A stretch of 64,000 bases of DNA from Escherichia coli (GTDB lineage: Bacteria > Pseudomonadota > Gammaproteobacteria > Enterobacterales > Enterobacteriaceae), in assembly GCF_003991155.1 (NCBI RefSeq), contig NZ_CP031293.1; one strand, 5' to 3'. The notes beneath the pieces were generated by a model, which worked only from the letters and a program-made list of their open reading frames with translations, was not told where the DNA came from and searched no databases. A program made the position numbers and the translations under genes. Positions 9,614 through 35,131 of the stretch are shown here, one piece after another (position 1 is the stretch's first letter; each line of letters starts with the position of its first letter).

Positions 9614-11182
9614 TTAGCGTGCCGGCTGAGTAGTCGTGGAAGACTGCTCAAAGTGATAGCGACCGGTTTTCAGGCTGCTTGGGCCGAGGCGTGCAAACTT
9701 GAACATTAAGAACAATTCTGCCACCAGGAACAGGGTATACAGGCCGCAAATCAGCACCATTGAGAAGATGAGATCGCCTGCGGTCAGTGACGAGTTCGCC
9801 ACAGCTGTCGGCAGCACTTCACCGATAGCCCACGGTTGGCGGCCATATTCAGCCACAAACCAGCCCGCTTCTACAGCAATCCACGGCAGCGGAATACCGT
9901 ACAGCGCGGCGCGCAGCAGCCATTTTTTCTCGCCAATGCGGTTGCGGATGACACTCCAGAAAGAGAGCGCGATGATTGCCAGCAGCAGGAAGCCACACGC
10001 CACCATGATACGGAACGCGAAGTACAGCGGCGCTACACGCGGAATGGAGTCTTTGGTTGCCTGTTGAATCTGCGCTTCAGTCGCATCAGCCACGTTTGGC
10101 GTATAGCGTTTCAGCAGCAGACCGTAACCGAGGTCTTTCTTCATGCTATTGAACTGGTCACGAACCGCCTGGTCGGTAGAACCAGAACGCAGTTGCTCGA
10201 GCAGAGAGTACGCCTTCATCCCGTTACGAATGCGTTCTTCATGCTGCACCATCAGTTCTTTCAGGCCGATAACTGGAGTATCCACGGAACGCGTTGCAAT
10301 GATGCCCAGCGCGTAAGGGATCTGGATCGCAAATTTGTTCGTCTCCTCTTCCTGATCAGGAATGCCGAACAGAGTAAAGGCAGCAGGCGCAGGTTGCGTT
10401 TCCCACTCGGCTTCAATAGCAGCCAGTTTGGTTTTCTGCACGTCGCCCATTTCGTAACCAGATTCATCACCCAGAACAATAACAGACAGAACGGCAGCCA
10501 TACCGAAGCTGGCAGCGATAGCAAAGGAGCGTTTAGCGAAGGCGAAGTCACGACCTTTCAGCATATACCATGCGCTGATACCGAGGATGAACATCGCGCC
10601 AGTCACATAACCAGACGCTACAGTGTGAACGAATTTCACCTGAGCAACCGGGTTAAGCACCAGCTCGGAGAAGCTCACCATCTCCATACGCATAGTTTCA
10701 AAGTTGAAATCGGACGCGATTGGGTTTTGCATCCAGCCGTTCGCAACCAGAATCCACAGTGCGGACAGGTTTGAACCGAGCGCCACCAGCCAGGTGACAC
10801 ACATATGCTGAACTTTACCCAGACGATCCCAACCGAAGAAGAACAGACCTACAAAGGTGGATTCGAGGAAGAAGGCCATTAGACCTTCGATTGCCAGCGG
10901 CGCACCGAAGATATCCCCTACATAGTGGGAATAGTAAGACCAGTTAGTCCCGAACTGGAACTCCATGGTCAGACCGGTAGCCACACCCAGAGCGAAGTTG
11001 ATACCAAACAACTTGCCCCAGAACTTGGTCATATCTTTATAAATCTGTTTGCCGGAAAGGACGTAGACCGTTTCCATAATGGCCAGCAGGAACGCCATAC
11101 CGAGCGTCAGTGGCACAAAAAGGAAGTGGTACATCGCGGTCAAGGCAAACTGTAAGCGCGACAGTTCGACTATATCTAACAT
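9614..11182 (-). CDS. cydA: Cytochrome bd-I ubiquinol oxidase subunit I
   Basis: Matches CydA. The second of two tandem ATGs was chosen (AAGGAG 5 nt upstream), giving 522 aa. Confidence 0.97.
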
Positions 11183-11519
11183 CATGACTCCTTGCTCATC
11201 GCATGAAGACTCCGAGAGTGAACCCCGTTAGAAAGGGTCACACGCATGCCCCAATACAAAATTATTTGCTCGCCTCTATCGTTGCCATTTCATCAAAAGA
11301 GGAAAAGACAATGATAAAAAAGTTACAAATATGTTAATGAATAAACCAAATTGATCCCGTAATTATATTACGCCGCAAAATCCTTACAATAAACAGGTTT
11401 TTATTGAGCAAATTTGCATTTTTCGACAGTGATCAATTTATAGCGAAATTGTCACGATCTCACCAATTTGATCTACGACAATTTATCGTGTTTTGCAGAT
11501 TTTTTTCAAGAATTAAAAA

Positions 11520-11533
11520 TTGATTTATATCAA
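11520..11533. promoter_or_regulatory. FNR-consensus site in the cydA upstream region
   Basis: TTGATTTATATCAA is a perfect TTGAT-N4-ATCAA palindrome, about 340 nt upstream of the cydA ATG. cydAB is known to be controlled by FNR and ArcA. Confidence 0.55.
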
Positions 11534-11987
11534 AACCAACCAAATATGTTAATTATGTATAAACCATAGATCATTGGTGATTTTATTGTTAATTTATTGT
11601 GAAATATTTATGCAACACAATTATTACAATGAAAAGGTATAGATAAAAAACCAGTGTTTTATTTAACAGAACCGCCTTATCCACTTTTTATAATACCAAT
11701 TGATTAGATTAGCCAATTTGTTGCTATTTTACATAACATATTTTTATCAAAGTTAATTGATTGTTGCCTTTATGAGCACCGGCCGTAAGCCCGTTATGTT
11801 ATTGTTTCATTAGTAATAATCACTTAAATGTATCGATGAAACAGGTATGACTTAGCGGGAGTGATTGTTTCTGAGTGAACAGAAACCACTTTCGCCTGAT
11901 AAATGAAAAATGAGCGATTTTTGCAAGTTAGTTTTTCTATAGCCGAGTACGCTCAGCGCCTCGCTTGATTACAATGAGGTTGCTGCT

Positions 11988-12932
11988 ATGAGTCCTGATA
12001 ATATCGGTTCGGCTGTCAATCGCTTCTCAGGTTGGCCATCTAATGATCCTCTAAAAACAGATAACGAATCAATGACATCACCCGTGACTGTGCAGGTAAT
12101 AAAGATGATTGCCGCCATCCTTGACCCATATCGGATAGTCGTTGGAATCGATACACTTTATACAACGCAGCGCGAAACATTTACCTCAGAGAGTCAACAG
12201 CTCATTGAATCAGCATTGCAAACACTTCATGTGATAAATTTAAATAACCTGGAAACAAATCTCGATGAGGACGGTCACTATCTGGCTTTTGGATATAACG
12301 TTGACACTCCTGACAGAATAACCGTTTCTGCTTATAATGAAAAAAAGCCTGGCTGCTATGGCCAATGTCTTTTAATACAGGATGACGAAACAGACTTATT
12401 TAACCTGATAAAAGTTAAAATTTTTGAAGCCAGGCATAATTATGTCGCTCAATTGATGAGCGATCCGGAATTTATGTTCAAATTTAGTTATAGCGCTCAA
12501 CAAAATAGATTAGAACCTCATCTTCTGGTTCCCACTTATTTCCCTCTAAAAACAAACGAACCGGTTACGCAAGAGGATGTACTGTTACTTTATCGTTTCT
12601 TTAAAATGGATGGTGATTTTAATATATTAACATCAGATGAATACATGAGTATCATGACACCTCTGATGAAGTGTGAGCGCAGCATCCACGACCACAACAG
12701 GTATGTGACGGGCAAAGATACCCTTCTTCTGGACTATCCTCCTTCTGGTAACCAGATATATTTCCATATTTTTCCTGACGAATCAGCAACACTAGTCCTT
12801 TATTTTTCAAACAATGACATTGAATGTTTCGTCTTTGAAAGAGATATTCCGAGCCAGTATCGCTTTTTCAAAATGTTTACCAATCTGGCACTGGTTATTG
12901 ATCAGTTAACCGATGCCAATCAAATACTTTAA
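11988..12932 (+). CDS. Hypothetical protein, 314 aa, no recognised domain (orphan A)
   Basis: ATG preceded by GAGG 8 nt upstream, in an AT-rich, uninterrupted frame. The N-terminus is polar and Ser/Asn/Pro-rich. The exact hexapeptide YRFFKM occurs twice (codons at 12591-12608 and 12858-12875). Confidence 0.7.
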   Translation: MSPDNIGSAVNRFSGWPSNDPLKTDNESMTSPVTVQVIKMIAAILDPYRIVVGIDTLYTTQRETFTSESQQLIESALQTLHVINLNNLETNLDEDGHYLAFGYNVDTPDRITVSAYNEKKPGCYGQCLLIQDDETDLFNLIKVKIFEARHNYVAQLMSDPEFMFKFSYSAQQNRLEPHLLVPTYFPLKTNEPVTQEDVLLLYRFFKMDGDFNILTSDEYMSIMTPLMKCERSIHDHNRYVTGKDTLLLDYPPSGNQIYFHIFPDESATLVLYFSNNDIECFVFERDIPSQYRFFKMFTNLALVIDQLTDANQIL

Positions 12933-13012
12933 TTTTTATATATTCCCTGTGGCAAATATTGCTAAACAATGCCCGGGGATTAATTTTTATTACTCACGGA
13001 AAGATTTAAATA

Positions 13013-13435
13013 ATGATCCCATCTCAAATCTCTTTCAACACCCTTCCTGTCAATGCAACATACGCTTCAGAGACAACAGTTGACACACAAAAATTCTCTG
13101 ACATCCTCTACTCAGCGGGGTGTTCCCTAAAGGATCTGGCTTATCTGAGCAGATGTCTGGCATCAATACATCCGACTATCGCCAAAAACATTTATGAAAC
13201 AGAAAATCTCAGCGATCAAAAATTACTACATATTGATTGCCGTAGTACAAATGAAATCAAGATAAATATCTTTTTTGGTCAACAACGAGAAGGATTAATT
13301 GAAATTAATTCTGACACTGTCATTTTTTCGATATTGTCTTCATTAATTGACTCCGCCATTTCTAAATTTCAACACCAAATCCCCGTTAACGGTTCAGTTA
13401 ATCGTGAACTATTGTATGAGGATTATACTGATTAA
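13013..13435 (+). CDS. Hypothetical small acidic protein, 140 aa, no recognised domain (orphan B)
   Basis: Same strand as orphan A and 80 nt downstream of it, AT-rich. About 17 Asp/Glu versus 10 Lys/Arg by my count. The RBS is weak (ggaaag). Confidence 0.6.
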   Translation: MIPSQISFNTLPVNATYASETTVDTQKFSDILYSAGCSLKDLAYLSRCLASIHPTIAKNIYETENLSDQKLLHIDCRSTNEIKINIFFGQQREGLIEINSDTVIFSILSSLIDSAISKFQHQIPVNGSVNRELLYEDYTD

Positions 13436-13981
13436 ATCCACCCAGTCGCGAAAATGGCCTGCGTTATTGCCAGAGGTAATAAAACCTTTGATTAACGTTA
13501 CTCATACTGGTAGCACCTTCATGTACCTCTCTTTTTTACGAAAAATCAAAAGAGCTAACTAAGGTCATAATTCGCATGAATCATTAACCATTTGTTATTT
13601 TCAACATTATTTTTACATTAAGCAGAGATGAATTGCAGTGAAATTCGACTTAAATTTTATGAAATGCATTTACTCATGGCTAAACCCATATCACTAAAAT
13701 GCAAATTAGAAGTAGATCACAAATACCTCAATACACCAAATCAAGTTAATTTTAAAAATTTAACATTCATGACATTAGTTGACATAACACACTGAATTAA
13801 CATGAGAATTTAACAACATACTTTAAACAATCATTTCCCGAAAGACATTTTGAAAATAGATCAATTGCAACATTACGGTCAGATAAAGACACTCCTGTGA
13901 TATTAAACCTGTGCCGTTATGAACGGCCATAAATACGACGTGTGTAACTTATTTTACTCTCTGTCTTACAAAGGATTACCC

Positions 13982-14431
13982 ATGAAGAAAGCAACACTTG
14001 TGATTGGCGTTATTGGCGCGGACTGCCATGCAGTAGGCAATAAAGTTCTGGACCGCGTTTTTAGCAACCATGGCTTCAGAGTCATTAATCTGGGCGTAAT
14101 GGTCAGCCAGGACGAATATATTGATGCGGCCATTGAAACTGGCGCTGACGCGATTGTCGTCTCCTCTATCTATGGGCATGGCGATATCGACTGTCTGGGC
14201 ATGCGCGAACGCTGCATCGAGCGTGGACTGGGGGACATCCTGCTCTATGTGGGCGGTAACCTGGTGGTCGGAAAACATGACTTCGCTGACGTGGAAACCA
14301 AATTCAAAGAGATGGGATTTGATCGCGTCTTTGCCCCAAGTCATGACTTAGAAGATGTTTGTCAGCTGATGGCACACGATATCAACCAACGTCATGACGT
14401 TGATACTCGTATTCTTGAAGAGGCAATCTGA
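13982..14431 (+). CDS. glmS: Glutamate mutase sigma (B12-binding) subunit
   Basis: ORF trimmed to ATG 13982 (AAGGA 7 nt upstream). [24 protein letters not shown] carries the DxHxxG cobalamin-binding motif. Size and position match clostridial MutS/GlmS. This is not the glucosamine-6-P synthase glmS. Confidence 0.9.
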
Positions 14432-32976: not shown

Positions 32977-33733
32977 GAATCTTCTCCTGTTACTTGATAA
33001 AATTAAACGCTGTAATCGGTCAGAAAAAACGAACGAATGAATATAGAAACGGTTTCTATAATTCCCGTTTATCATTTTGTATTATTAATTCATTTAGTGA
33101 ATATTGTTTGTCGTGGTATATTCACTATGAATATAAATTCAAAACCACCAACGCGTTGTATGCGAATTCAATATGCTTAATTTAACTTGTCGAAAAAGTG
33201 ATATTGTTGGCAAAATATTTTCTAATTTGAACATATGAATATGATGAGATTGCAAGATGTCAGTAATTTAATTATATGAGAAATGCGTTAATAACGACCA
33301 GATATTAGCGTAACAACAGGTGTTCCGACACCACACAGTGCGCATAACACAATGATATTTAAAATAAGATCTTCATTATTCGTCATAAAGACATGTTTTA
33401 TTATCATTAATAATCCATTTGTTTTCATCCCACTTTTGATAATTAAAAAACGGCAACAATGGATAGTTACCCGACGTAAAAACAGGCGTAAAAATAAATC
33501 TTAAAATATATCCACTGGAAATTATCATTTTTCATATTTTACAATCTGGCGTCGATAACTGACCCCTTTTATAACACCCCCGTTTGTTAATAGTCTTTTT
33601 TATCTTGTATTGATCGTCATTGCTGCATACACTACGCGCGTTTTCTTTCCCTTTTGCTGGCTGCTGACCGGAAAGACAAAATTACCCTCGCAATAAAGGG
33701 GGTTGTTTAACGTCTATATTTCAGGACAGCGTT

Positions 33734-35131
33734 ATGCATCATCTTTCAAGGCTTGATAAAGCCTTTCTGCGCAAAGGGATCCAACTTTCCCGCGCCAACA
33801 ATATTGTTTCATTATGTCGTCCATCAGGAGCCAGTGCCCACGTACTGCTGCCGGACGAACTGCCGCTGGAAGAAAAAGCAGTGACACAACTGCTTGATTT
33901 TGCAGAAGTGAAGATACCAGACCATCCAGGTTACGTACGCCAGACCTGTGCGACGCCAGATTTTCATCCCGGCAATGGCGTCCCCGTTGGCGCGGTAGTC
34001 GCCTCTACGCCGGATTTAGTCATTCCTGCGGCCATCGGCACCGATATTTCTTGTGGCATGCGGCTGCTGACGACCGGATTAACACTTGAGCAAGCCGAAG
34101 CGAATAAAGAAATAATCACTCAGCGGTTAACACAAGTGTTACTGCAAAATGAGCGCGATGTTCCGTTATCCGCACGAGCGTTCACCGCGCTTTTTGATGG
34201 CGGACCGGCAGATTGCATGTCGGCCTTGCCATCAGCAGGTCTCTGGACACGTACAAATATCCCCCGAATGACGCAAGAGATTGACCGCTGCATTGGGCTT
34301 AACGAGCATAACAGTCATTCGCGTTATGCCCCACCCGCCCTACTGGTAACGGACCGCCCATTACTCCGCGATCCTTGTCTTGGTACGCCGGGTTCAGGTA
34401 ATCATTTTATTGAACTTCAGGTGGTTGATAGCGTGGTTGATCGCCATGTTGCCTGGCAACAAGGGCTGAAAACGGGCGATATTGTGGTGATGATCCACAG
34501 TGGATCGCGAGATGTTGGCTTTTACGTCGGAAGACGCTGGATGGATCGCGCCCGTGCTGAATGGCCCACCGGACATAAACATCCACAAAGCGGGTTATAT
34601 GGCCTGGCAGGCGGACTGGCGGAGGAATATCTACAAGCGATGGGAATGGCGGCGCGTTACGCGTGGTTAAATCGCGTCACAATTGCCGAAATGGTGCGCG
34701 TATGTCTTGCCAATCTCTTTCATCAGGACAATTCGCATCTGGTGGTGGATGTGCCGCATAACATCATCCTTCGCGAGCATGAAATGAATATTCATCGCAA
34801 AGGTGCAACACCGGCACGCGCGGGCAATCTGGCGTTAATCCCCGGTTCAATGGGCGATTATTCGTGGCTTGCAGTCGGTTGCGGCAACCCGGAGTGGCTG
34901 TGGTCTTGCAGTCACGGAGCAGGACGCAGCCAGCGTCGGCAGGCCATGCACTCACGCGCGACTGAAGAGTCAACGTTGCCGTGGCAATGCGTCACATTGC
35001 GCGAAGAACGGCGTATTGAAGAAGCGCCAGCTGCTTATAAAGATATTGGTCCGGTTATCGAAGCCCAACAAGAGGCCGGATTAATTCATCCAGCGGTTAG
35101 ATTCCGACCGTGGTTAACGTTTAAGGCATAA
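33734..35131 (+). CDS. RtcB-family RNA 3'-phosphate ligase paralogue (stand-alone)
   Basis: 465 aa. RtcB signature blocks are conserved: PDFHPG, GTDISCGMR, GSGNHFIELQ, IHSGSRDVG, PHNII, HRKGATPA, IPGSMG, SHGAGR. Confidence 0.88.
   Translation: MHHLSRLDKAFLRKGIQLSRANNIVSLCRPSGASAHVLLPDELPLEEKAVTQLLDFAEVKIPDHPGYVRQTCATPDFHPGNGVPVGAVVASTPDLVIPAAIGTDISCGMRLLTTGLTLEQAEANKEIITQRLTQVLLQNERDVPLSARAFTALFDGGPADCMSALPSAGLWTRTNIPRMTQEIDRCIGLNEHNSHSRYAPPALLVTDRPLLRDPCLGTPGSGNHFIELQVVDSVVDRHVAWQQGLKTGDIVVMIHSGSRDVGFYVGRRWMDRARAEWPTGHKHPQSGLYGLAGGLAEEYLQAMGMAARYAWLNRVTIAEMVRVCLANLFHQDNSHLVVDVPHNIILREHEMNIHRKGATPARAGNLALIPGSMGDYSWLAVGCGNPEWLWSCSHGAGRSQRRQAMHSRATEESTLPWQCVTLREERRIEEAPAAYKDIGPVIEAQQEAGLIHPAVRFRPWLTFKA

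Follow-up and report, generated by a model that had tools for sequence, protein, structure and literature searches.

Orphan genes (ORFans) that are restricted to particular lineages and lie in AT-rich, H-NS-silenced islets of Escherichia coli (Neuhaus et al., 2016, PMC4765031; reviews such as PMC12315717) are the closest described class to the gene pair analyzed here. The pair consists of two neighboring open reading frames (ORFs), ORF A and ORF B, in a 64,000-nucleotide (nt) stretch of an E. coli chromosome (contig NZ_CP031293.1), which we refer to as the window. Like the described ORFans, the pair is Escherichia-restricted, low in GC content and devoid of detectable homologs; its expression is very low, it is under relaxed purifying selection and it is patchily distributed among strains. 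Unlike them, ORF A is large (314 amino acids, aa) and, from its synteny in Escherichia albertii, older than the species, and the pair lies beside the control region of a core operon and not in a prophage or classic island, with an H-NS occupancy that is putative. We favor, with a probability of about 0.6, the reading that ORF A and ORF B are an old, weakly constrained, Escherichia-restricted orphan gene pair that resides as a small same-strand unit in the slot between sucD and cydA. The pair is a better-characterized addition to the bacterial ORFans, a class that is already known.

ORF A and ORF B are genuine coding genes under relaxed purifying selection. Their coordinates, + strand and lengths (314 and 140 aa) are exactly as the initial annotation, made from the sequence alone, had described them, and RefSeq annotates the same two coding sequences (CDSs) as hypothetical proteins (WP_001310136.1 and WP_000613119.1 in O157:H7). 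None of 3,000 composition-matched simulations contained an ORF of at least 314 codons, the longest having 194; reaching 140 codons or more had P = 0.016, a marginal value for ORF B when length alone is considered. Using the Nei-Gojobori method, we obtained ratios of nonsynonymous to synonymous substitution rates (dN/dS) for ORF A of 0.3–0.6 among E. coli alleles and of 0.43 in comparison with the E. albertii-type copy, from which it is separated by 145 nonsynonymous and 73 synonymous changes (dS 0.52). For ORF B, dN/dS was 0.06–0.43. For both genes the departure from 1 is significant and downward: Fisher p was 5.5e-7 for ORF A and ranged from 3e-6 to 5e-4 for ORF B. For comparison, dN/dS was at most 0.02 for cydA, 0.08–0.19 for glmL and 0.03–0.20 for most glmS pairs.

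The annotated ATG is the real start of ORF A: in E. albertii the N-terminal peptide is conserved and Met29 and Met40 are not. A Shine-Dalgarno sequence, GAGG, lies 8 nt before this ATG and is conserved together with the start codon. Compared with E. albertii, the 83 nt before the ATG (82–92% identical) are better conserved than the body of ORF A (64–88%). That both ORFs are chance open frames, as the marginal length of ORF B and transcription near zero might suggest, has a negligible probability. It is effectively refuted for ORF A, whose length never arose in the simulations, and it is at odds with the significantly lowered dN/dS of both ORFs, with the maintenance of both frames among E. coli alleles and of the ORF A frame across species, and with the conserved Shine-Dalgarno sequence and start codon.

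Of 5,426 complete E. coli genomes, a sample heavy in O157:H7, 1,135 carry the pair and ~79% lack it. We checked annotations in 60 E. coli genomes drawn evenly across 93–100% nucleotide identity. RefSeq places two hypothetical-protein CDSs under the match in all 60, both ORFs are intact in 58, and the reading frames are kept across alleles spanning this 93–100% range. In one of the 60, the match covers just 72% of the query and is split between two places. In strain 2016C-3878, an insertion sequence (IS), IS1A, lies in the 3′ end of ORF B (L012 2526-3629) and shortens it to 131 aa; this strain is otherwise 100% identical to the window across the pair region. Between the more divergent E. coli alleles, dS for ORF A and ORF B is 0.10–0.19, ~2–3 times that of glmS and glmL (mostly 0.03–0.09), and it also exceeds the dS of cydA (0.003–0.09) in the same strain pairs. 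Weak codon bias, as in a gene that is silent, might explain these high values, as might older allelic lineages kept by recombination.

The initial annotation took the composition of the pair to be typical of recently acquired DNA, a view that the E. albertii loci contradict. In E. albertii, ORF A has the same position and orientation beside cydA, with 64–68% protein identity, and the E. coli gene and the E. albertii-type copy have diverged by 23% at the nucleotide level. At two E. albertii loci (L003 and L008, the latter from the type strain), the order is cydA, control region, ORF A, a remnant of ORF B, unrelated DNA and sucD, with no methylaspartate island. Nucleotide homology is unbroken from cydA across the control region and the whole of ORF A to the first 26 nt of ORF B. 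These 26 nt and a 44-nt patch are what is left of ORF B, and unrelated DNA follows up to sucD. At the position of ORF B, any remaining ORF is shorter than 50 aa and what similarity persists is out of frame, and a word-indexed cluster search found no ORF B protein in E. albertii. ORF A is full length (314 aa) in the representative of the E. albertii cluster (P0004) and in 12 of its 14 other listed members; it is frameshifted in the type strain and frameshifted or truncated in some E. albertii strains.

ORF A, its leader, the first codons of ORF B and the neighboring cydA control region follow one another in the same order in E. albertii, and the pair therefore predates the split between E. coli and E. 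albertii. Between E. coli and the E. albertii-type sequence, dS is 0.52 for ORF A and 0.28 for cydA; as the former is the larger, recent exchange is argued against. By these comparisons the AT-rich pair is old and probably in the course of being lost, rather than recently gained. The pair is separable from the adjacent methylaspartate island.

The DNA next to cydA bears on the same history. The 370 nt upstream of cydA are 99–100% identical among E. coli that carry the island and those of the A26 type, and 95% identical to E. albertii. The same 370 nt are only 78% identical to the K-12 type, in which mngRAB occupies the slot, and beyond them the sequences cannot be aligned (window 11186-11556 against L013 6998-7370 and L003 9076-9445; for the K-12-type cydAB control region, one strain of the mngRAB type was sampled). 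The E. coli loci compared share >98.5% identity across the cydA coding sequence. From the control-region identities (95% versus 78%), the haplotype that bears ORF A and ORF B is the one that E. coli has in common with its sister species E. albertii. The common K-12 arrangement, judged by this alignment, looks like a replacement with its breakpoint at the start of cydA. This dimorphism of the cydAB control region, with a K-12-type version only 78% identical to that of O157:H7 and E. albertii, may matter more to physiologists than the pair itself.

Two further observations concern the distribution of these haplotypes. By megablast identity, 3,195 genomes fell at 80–90%, 1,110 at 90–95% and 1,120 at 95% or above; sampled rows suggest that these bands are the K-12-like, A26-like and island types, respectively. 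In the island-less E. coli A26, which has a gene for a tetratricopeptide repeat (TPR) protein in the slot, a 72-nt remnant of glmS that is 76% identical to the window (L002 6876-6944, window 14215-14286) is still present, which shows that this lineage lost the methylaspartate island and the pair by deletion, as opposed to never having acquired them.

ORF A and ORF B have no detectable relative outside Escherichia or Shigella. The initial annotation recognized no family for either protein, and profile, Protein Data Bank (PDB) and phage searches were likewise empty. Pfam, NCBIfam, PADLOC and PHROGs yielded no match past threshold (best E 0.036), neither protein hit a single PADLOC-DB family even at E up to 10, and profile searches of PDB sequences gave nothing below E 0.9. 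An exhaustive profile HMMER scan of 1.84 billion representatives with ORF A returned 14 matches, all of them fragments of ORF A itself. In a word-indexed search of 5.8 billion clusters, on which the orphan status of ORF B rests, all homologs of ORF A and ORF B were from Escherichia or Shigella. When genomes were scanned at one per GTDB species, E. albertii alone gave a match; in Shigella dysenteriae only a fragment remains. Phage and viral collections contained no copies. Three matches labeled as plasmids are records of 0.73–4.9 Mb, far above typical plasmid size, and are probably chromosomal sequence. Two proteins (P0046 and P0047) and a locus (L004) that had appeared to be distant relatives of ORF B were rejected as frameshift artifacts of a noisy assembly. 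A literature search by locus tag and accession found nothing in main texts or supplements, apart from one informative table (Landstorfer, 2014, Table S4).

AlphaFold2, run with shallow alignments, gave models for both proteins, with predicted local distance difference test scores (pLDDT) of 42.7 (ORF A) and 41.3 (ORF B). At such scores fold matches carry no weight. For ORF A, a Foldseek search of the PDB with this model gave nothing at E 1e-3 or better, and EspG and VirA were weak matches; for ORF B, the type III secretion gatekeepers SepL, BopN and CopN headed the list amid unrelated helical hairpins.

The pair is probably silenced, as judged from its composition and published expression data. 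Over ~2.8 kb, the pair region has a GC content of 0.352, compared with 0.512 for the rest of the window, and it was correctly singled out at the start as the most AT-rich part of the window (35% versus 51% GC). The three 1-kb bins covering 11001-14000 (GC 0.356, 0.382 and 0.340) are the lowest in the window apart from 33001-34000 (0.377). By segment, GC is 0.330 in the left spacer, 0.385 in ORF A, 0.300 in the gap between the ORFs, 0.364 in ORF B and 0.326 in the right spacer. H-NS motifs occur at 4.3 per kb versus 1.3 per kb in the rest of the window (about 3–5x). In published RNA sequencing (RNA-seq) of strain EDL933 under 11 conditions (Landstorfer, 2014, Table S4), all four ORFs annotated between glmS and cydA had 0–12 reads per kilobase per million mapped reads (RPKM), and cydA had 2–212. 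For the pair, RPKM was at most 5, or at most 12 if any of the four candidate tags is allowed. The AT-rich DNA and this near-silence both fit the silenced state that was proposed originally; a search for published H-NS chromatin immunoprecipitation or hns-mutant results for this locus turned up none.

Silence and repeated loss are also what would be seen if ORF A and ORF B were functionless relics, the leftovers of an ancient acquisition that decay slowly and contribute nothing to fitness. Such relics would account for the relaxed dN/dS of ORF A (0.3–0.6), the near-zero RPKM across the 11 EDL933 conditions, the absence of the pair from ~79% of complete E. coli genomes, the ORF B pseudogene and the frameshifted or truncated ORF A genes in E. 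albertii, and the IS1 insertion in one E. coli strain. We regard this explanation as unlikely. Despite 23% nucleotide divergence and a GC content of 38%, ORF A has kept all of its 314 codons open, and its dN/dS (0.43) lies significantly under 1. Nearly all of the sampled E. coli genomes (58/60) have both ORFs intact, and conservation is higher in the leader and Shine-Dalgarno sequence than in the body of the gene.

In the orphan-pair reading that we prefer, the two genes would be transcribed divergently from cydAB, from a start within the conserved leader of ORF A. They would normally be off through H-NS-type silencing of their AT-rich DNA, and an inducing signal would be needed for expression. 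ORF A would be the functional core, a soluble, acidic protein of cytoplasmic type with an alpha/beta fold and a conserved polar N terminus, and ORF B would be a dispensable partner. Loss across the genus may have been piecemeal, through replacement by mngRAB, deletion, frameshift and IS insertion.

Several points weigh against this reading. The dN/dS of ORF A is high, and its combination with near-zero expression and repeated loss is compatible with genes that have no current function. The 12 H-NS motifs observed are not clearly above the 7.9 ± 2.9 expected from AT composition. A weak hairpin and a U tract separate ORF A from ORF B, whose co-transcription is assumed, and the structure models are of low confidence (pLDDT 43 and 41). 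The pair occurs in 1,135 and the methylaspartate island in 1,131 E. coli genomes, figures that are total counts rather than per-genome overlap, so that a functional link between pair and island may exist within E. coli.

If the orphan-pair reading is true, ORF A is a clearly delimited case of a bacterial ORFan that is old and has been kept by selection; it is 314 aa long and has no relative among ~15 billion proteins. Its age is bracketed by the E. albertii synteny, which would make it useful in the debate on ORFan origins, and it would be well suited to having its structure solved experimentally. Our results also take the toxin/immunity, defense and pathway-accessory readings discussed below out of consideration for genes that are present in every O157:H7 genome.

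Larger proteins encoded beside ~15-kDa acidic proteins in AT-rich DNA are also found among pairs of effectors and class I chaperones, such as Tir/CesT and the non-LEE Nle proteins (LEE, locus of enterocyte effacement). As in these pairs, the N termini of ORF A and ORF B are polar and lack Sec signals, the genes are silent in standard media, a state typical of effector genes in vitro, and the hosts, E. coli and E. albertii, are species that bear type III secretion systems (T3SSs). ORF A might accordingly be a new effector of the injectisome encoded by the LEE or by E. coli type III secretion system 2 (ETT2), and ORF B its acidic chaperone or a second secreted protein. ORF B, with 140 aa, a pI of 4.8 and a start 80 nt downstream of ORF A, has the profile of a small acidic neighbor. 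The description of ORF B as acidic was borne out, and ORF A is acidic as well (pI 4.6). The polar N terminus ascribed to ORF A is also real, and that of ORF B is polar too: Ser, Thr, Asn, Pro, Gln and Gly make up 0.53 of the first 30 residues of ORF A and 0.50 of those of ORF B, the two highest fractions among the long ORFs of the window, 49 of which average 0.30 ± 0.08. We found no signal peptide or transmembrane segment in either protein. Both N termini are conserved (MSPDNI.. and MIPSQIS..) and resemble those of Nle-type effectors, a resemblance that serves as a lead rather than a test.

Other observations make this effector reading improbable. Neither protein matches an effector or chaperone family in sequence, with EspG and CesT-type models among the Pfam entries searched (E up to 10), and neither shows credible structural similarity to one; the fold matches that name T3SS proteins come from models with pLDDT 41–43 and stand among unrelated helical hairpins. 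The pair occurs in O157:H7, O145 and E. albertii, and also in strains named ST69, ST38 and O102:H6, lineages that we take to be LEE-negative extraintestinal pathogenic E. coli; there, in backgrounds believed to lack the LEE, it is intact and under purifying selection. The exhaustive scan with ORF A found no homolog in other attaching-effacing or T3SS-bearing enterobacteria. Unlike the Tir/CesT and Nle pairs, ORF A and ORF B occupy a fixed slot in the core genome, which is neither a prophage nor an exchangeable effector locus, and it is the small, putative chaperone that was lost in E. albertii and the large protein that persists. A related idea is that ORF A, with ORF B optional, founds a new Escherichia-specific family with a novel fold and acts as a conditionally expressed host or niche factor, likeliest a T3SS substrate, that has been kept since before the E. 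coli/E. albertii split and is silent under laboratory conditions. We consider this idea decidedly unlikely; secretion through a T3SS is the one specific lead to a mechanism that emerged.

The position of the pair next to the methylaspartate (glutamate mutase) fermentation cluster, which was characterized in O157:H7 (Kronen and Berg, 2015; PMC4682846), raises the possibility of an accessory or regulatory role in that pathway, for example in sensing, in assembly or in the handling of B12. The pair lies on the same strand as the cluster (glmS-glmL-glmE-mal-...-fumD), immediately upstream of glmS, and the two occur in nearly equal numbers of E. coli genomes. Such near-equal counts are expected from adjacency, since one deletion or replacement removes both. 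We judge this role very unlikely, because E. albertii keeps ORF A without the island and because the cluster is also present in Klebsiella, Citrobacter, Enterobacter, Salmonella, Yersinia and Morganella (Kronen and Berg, 2015; PMC4682846), whereas no homolog of ORF A or ORF B accompanies it in other genera or occurs outside Escherichia and Shigella. A 546-nt AT-rich spacer also lies between ORF B and glmS, and GC is 0.36–0.39 in the pair compared with 0.48–0.55 in the cluster. The glutamate-fermentation pathway does not include the pair as one of its conserved components.

With type II toxin-antitoxin and toxin-immunity modules the pair has in common that two neighboring genes on one strand differ in size and border a variable region, and the AT-rich, large-plus-small arrangement of ORF A and ORF B led the initial annotation to list such modules, together with phage defense, among its proposals. 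We reject the toxin proposals, and phage defense is unsupported. Most E. albertii strains keep ORF A at its full 314 aa with ORF B as a pseudogene; as ORF A persists without it, an essential antidote role for ORF B is unlikely, and the putative antidote is dispensable in nature. Neither protein matches a family in PADLOC, Pfam, NCBIfam or PHROGs. Unlike toxin-antitoxin and toxin-immunity genes, which typically overlap or are tightly coupled, ORF A and ORF B are separated by an 80-nt gap, and both proteins are acidic. The pair holds a fixed position, and its locus lacks an integrase, a transposase or any other sign of mobility. Genuine copies are absent from plasmids and phages, and the neighboring genes belong to core metabolism rather than to a defense island. 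A conflict module of any of these kinds, whether toxin-antitoxin, toxin-immunity or anti-phage, is therefore highly improbable.

An exact internal repeat of the hexapeptide YRFFKM in ORF A had been taken as a hint of a duplicated subdomain. The repeat is exact at the peptide level, and an exact 6-mer repeat occurred in 0.17% of 20,000 shuffles. The two copies use different synonymous codons. The second site reads YRYFAM in the E. albertii copy and YRHFKM in allele P0002, and in E. albertii the hexapeptide persists only as a shared degenerate pattern, [FY][RH][FY][FL]xM. The duplicated subdomain itself was not upheld, as tests using hhalign and Smith-Waterman shuffles were null. We also tested for paralogy between the C-terminal half of ORF A and ORF B, because the two proteins share an L-x-[KR]-C-x-x-S-I-H motif and are predicted to have similar beta-beta-beta-alpha arrangements. 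Both internal duplication and paralogy were rejected (hhalign probabilities <2%; Smith-Waterman shuffle p = 0.22–0.89). The motif, which is invariant, reads LMKCERSIH in ORF A and LSRCLASIH in ORF B, and in both proteins it sits ~25 residues before a predicted three-strand meander followed by a helix. This resemblance is without statistical support (p = 0.5) and may be due to chance.

The pair forms the cydA-proximal edge of the variable segment between sucD and cydA, in agreement with its original placement at the edge of an island (Table 1). In this slot, K-12-type genomes carry mngR-mngA-mngB and others the gene for the TPR protein. To the right of the pair are glmS, glmL, glmE and genes for a methylaspartate ammonia-lyase, an AtuA-like protein, a DUF4387 protein and a symporter, followed by fumD, cobO and a gene for a LysR regulator.

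Table 1. Coordinates of the pair, its flanking regions and features within them (window positions)
Feature	Position	Strand	Description
cydA	9614-11185	-	Left neighbor of the pair in the E. coli chromosome segment
Left spacer	11186-11987		802 nt, AT-rich; divergent, between cydA (-) and ORF A (+)
Left spacer, sub-block	11186-11556		Highly conserved, 90–98% identical to E. albertii
FNR consensus	11520-11533		Perfect match, in left spacer
Left spacer, sub-block	11557-11700		Variable, 60–78% identical to E. albertii
Left spacer, sub-block	11707-11781		Conserved, 92% identical to E. albertii
Left spacer, sub-block	11782-11905		Hypervariable, 58–68% identical to E. albertii
Leader of ORF A	11905-11987	+	Conserved leader/promoter-proximal block, 82–92% identical to E. 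albertii
Shine-Dalgarno sequence	11976-11979		GAGG, before ORF A
ORF A	11988-12932	+	314 aa, orphan, pI 4.6; E. coli and E. albertii only
First YRFFKM	12591-12608	+	ORF A aa 202-207, in predicted helix; FHFLQM in E. albertii copy
L-x-[KR]-C-x-x-S-I-H motif, ORF A	12663-12689		aa 226-234
Second YRFFKM	12858-12875	+	ORF A aa 291-296, start of predicted C-terminal helix
A-B intergenic gap	12933-13012	+	80 nt
Hairpin in A-B gap	~12944-12979		Followed by U-rich tract
ORF B	13013-13435	+	140 aa, orphan, pI 4.8; E. coli and Shigella only
L-x-[KR]-C-x-x-S-I-H motif, ORF B	13145-13171		aa 45-53
Right spacer	13436-13981		546 nt, AT-rich, upstream of glmS
glmS	13982-14431		First gene of methylaspartate cluster; start set by comparison with RefSeq
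Extra segment	25235-35131		~10 kb between LysR gene and sucD

Both flanks of the pair had been described as AT-rich non-coding stretches. They are indeed AT-rich, and the left one is, for the most part, the upstream control region of cydAB. It contains a perfect FNR consensus, TTGATTTATATCAA. The cydAB promoters of K-12 are reported by Cotter, Gunsalus and colleagues and by Govantes et al. (2000) to be controlled by FNR, ArcA and H-NS. The right spacer is presumably the control region of the methylaspartate operon.

Within the left spacer, the conserved 75-nt block at 11707-11781 stands amid much less conserved flanks and might regulate ORF A or act as a distal promoter or operator of cyd. The hypervariable block that follows is only 70–82% identical among E. 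coli alleles whose flanks are 94–100% identical. In the window it contains a 7-bp perfect inverted repeat, GTTTCTG-N6-CAGAAAC, which other alleles lack. We found no sigma-70-like promoter on the + strand upstream of ORF A, and Rfam gave no family in 11000-14200. A regulatory RNA in the ORF A leader was considered and rejected, as the hairpin predicted to sequester the Shine-Dalgarno sequence has no compensatory pairs (z = -1.2).

The gap between ORF A and ORF B contains a hairpin with a predicted fold of -15 kcal/mol, followed by a U-rich tract, AUUAAUUUUUAUUA. An intrinsic terminator at this position was rejected, since the fold is not significant (z = -1.36) and a terminator scan was silent. 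The hairpin is terminator-like in appearance and poorly conserved in E. albertii.

The variable slot also differs in content on its far side. To the right of the ORF B remnant, E. albertii has a gene for a 258-aa protein with a signal peptide (L003 11786-12562) that by eye resembles an outer-membrane beta-barrel; in the type strain, this putative beta-barrel protein is shortened to 114 aa (L008 11862-12206). Between the LysR gene and sucD, the window strain has ~10 kb of additional DNA that is absent from O157:H7. This segment contains a histidine-utilization (hut) cluster, encoding HutH (an aromatic amino-acid lyase), HutG (arginase family), HutI (an amidohydrolase), HutD, a cytosine/purine-type permease and HutU (urocanase), as well as a gene for an RtcB-like ligase. 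Histidine degraded to glutamate would feed the adjacent methylaspartate pathway, and the sucD-cydA slot would in this strain form a catabolic super-island.

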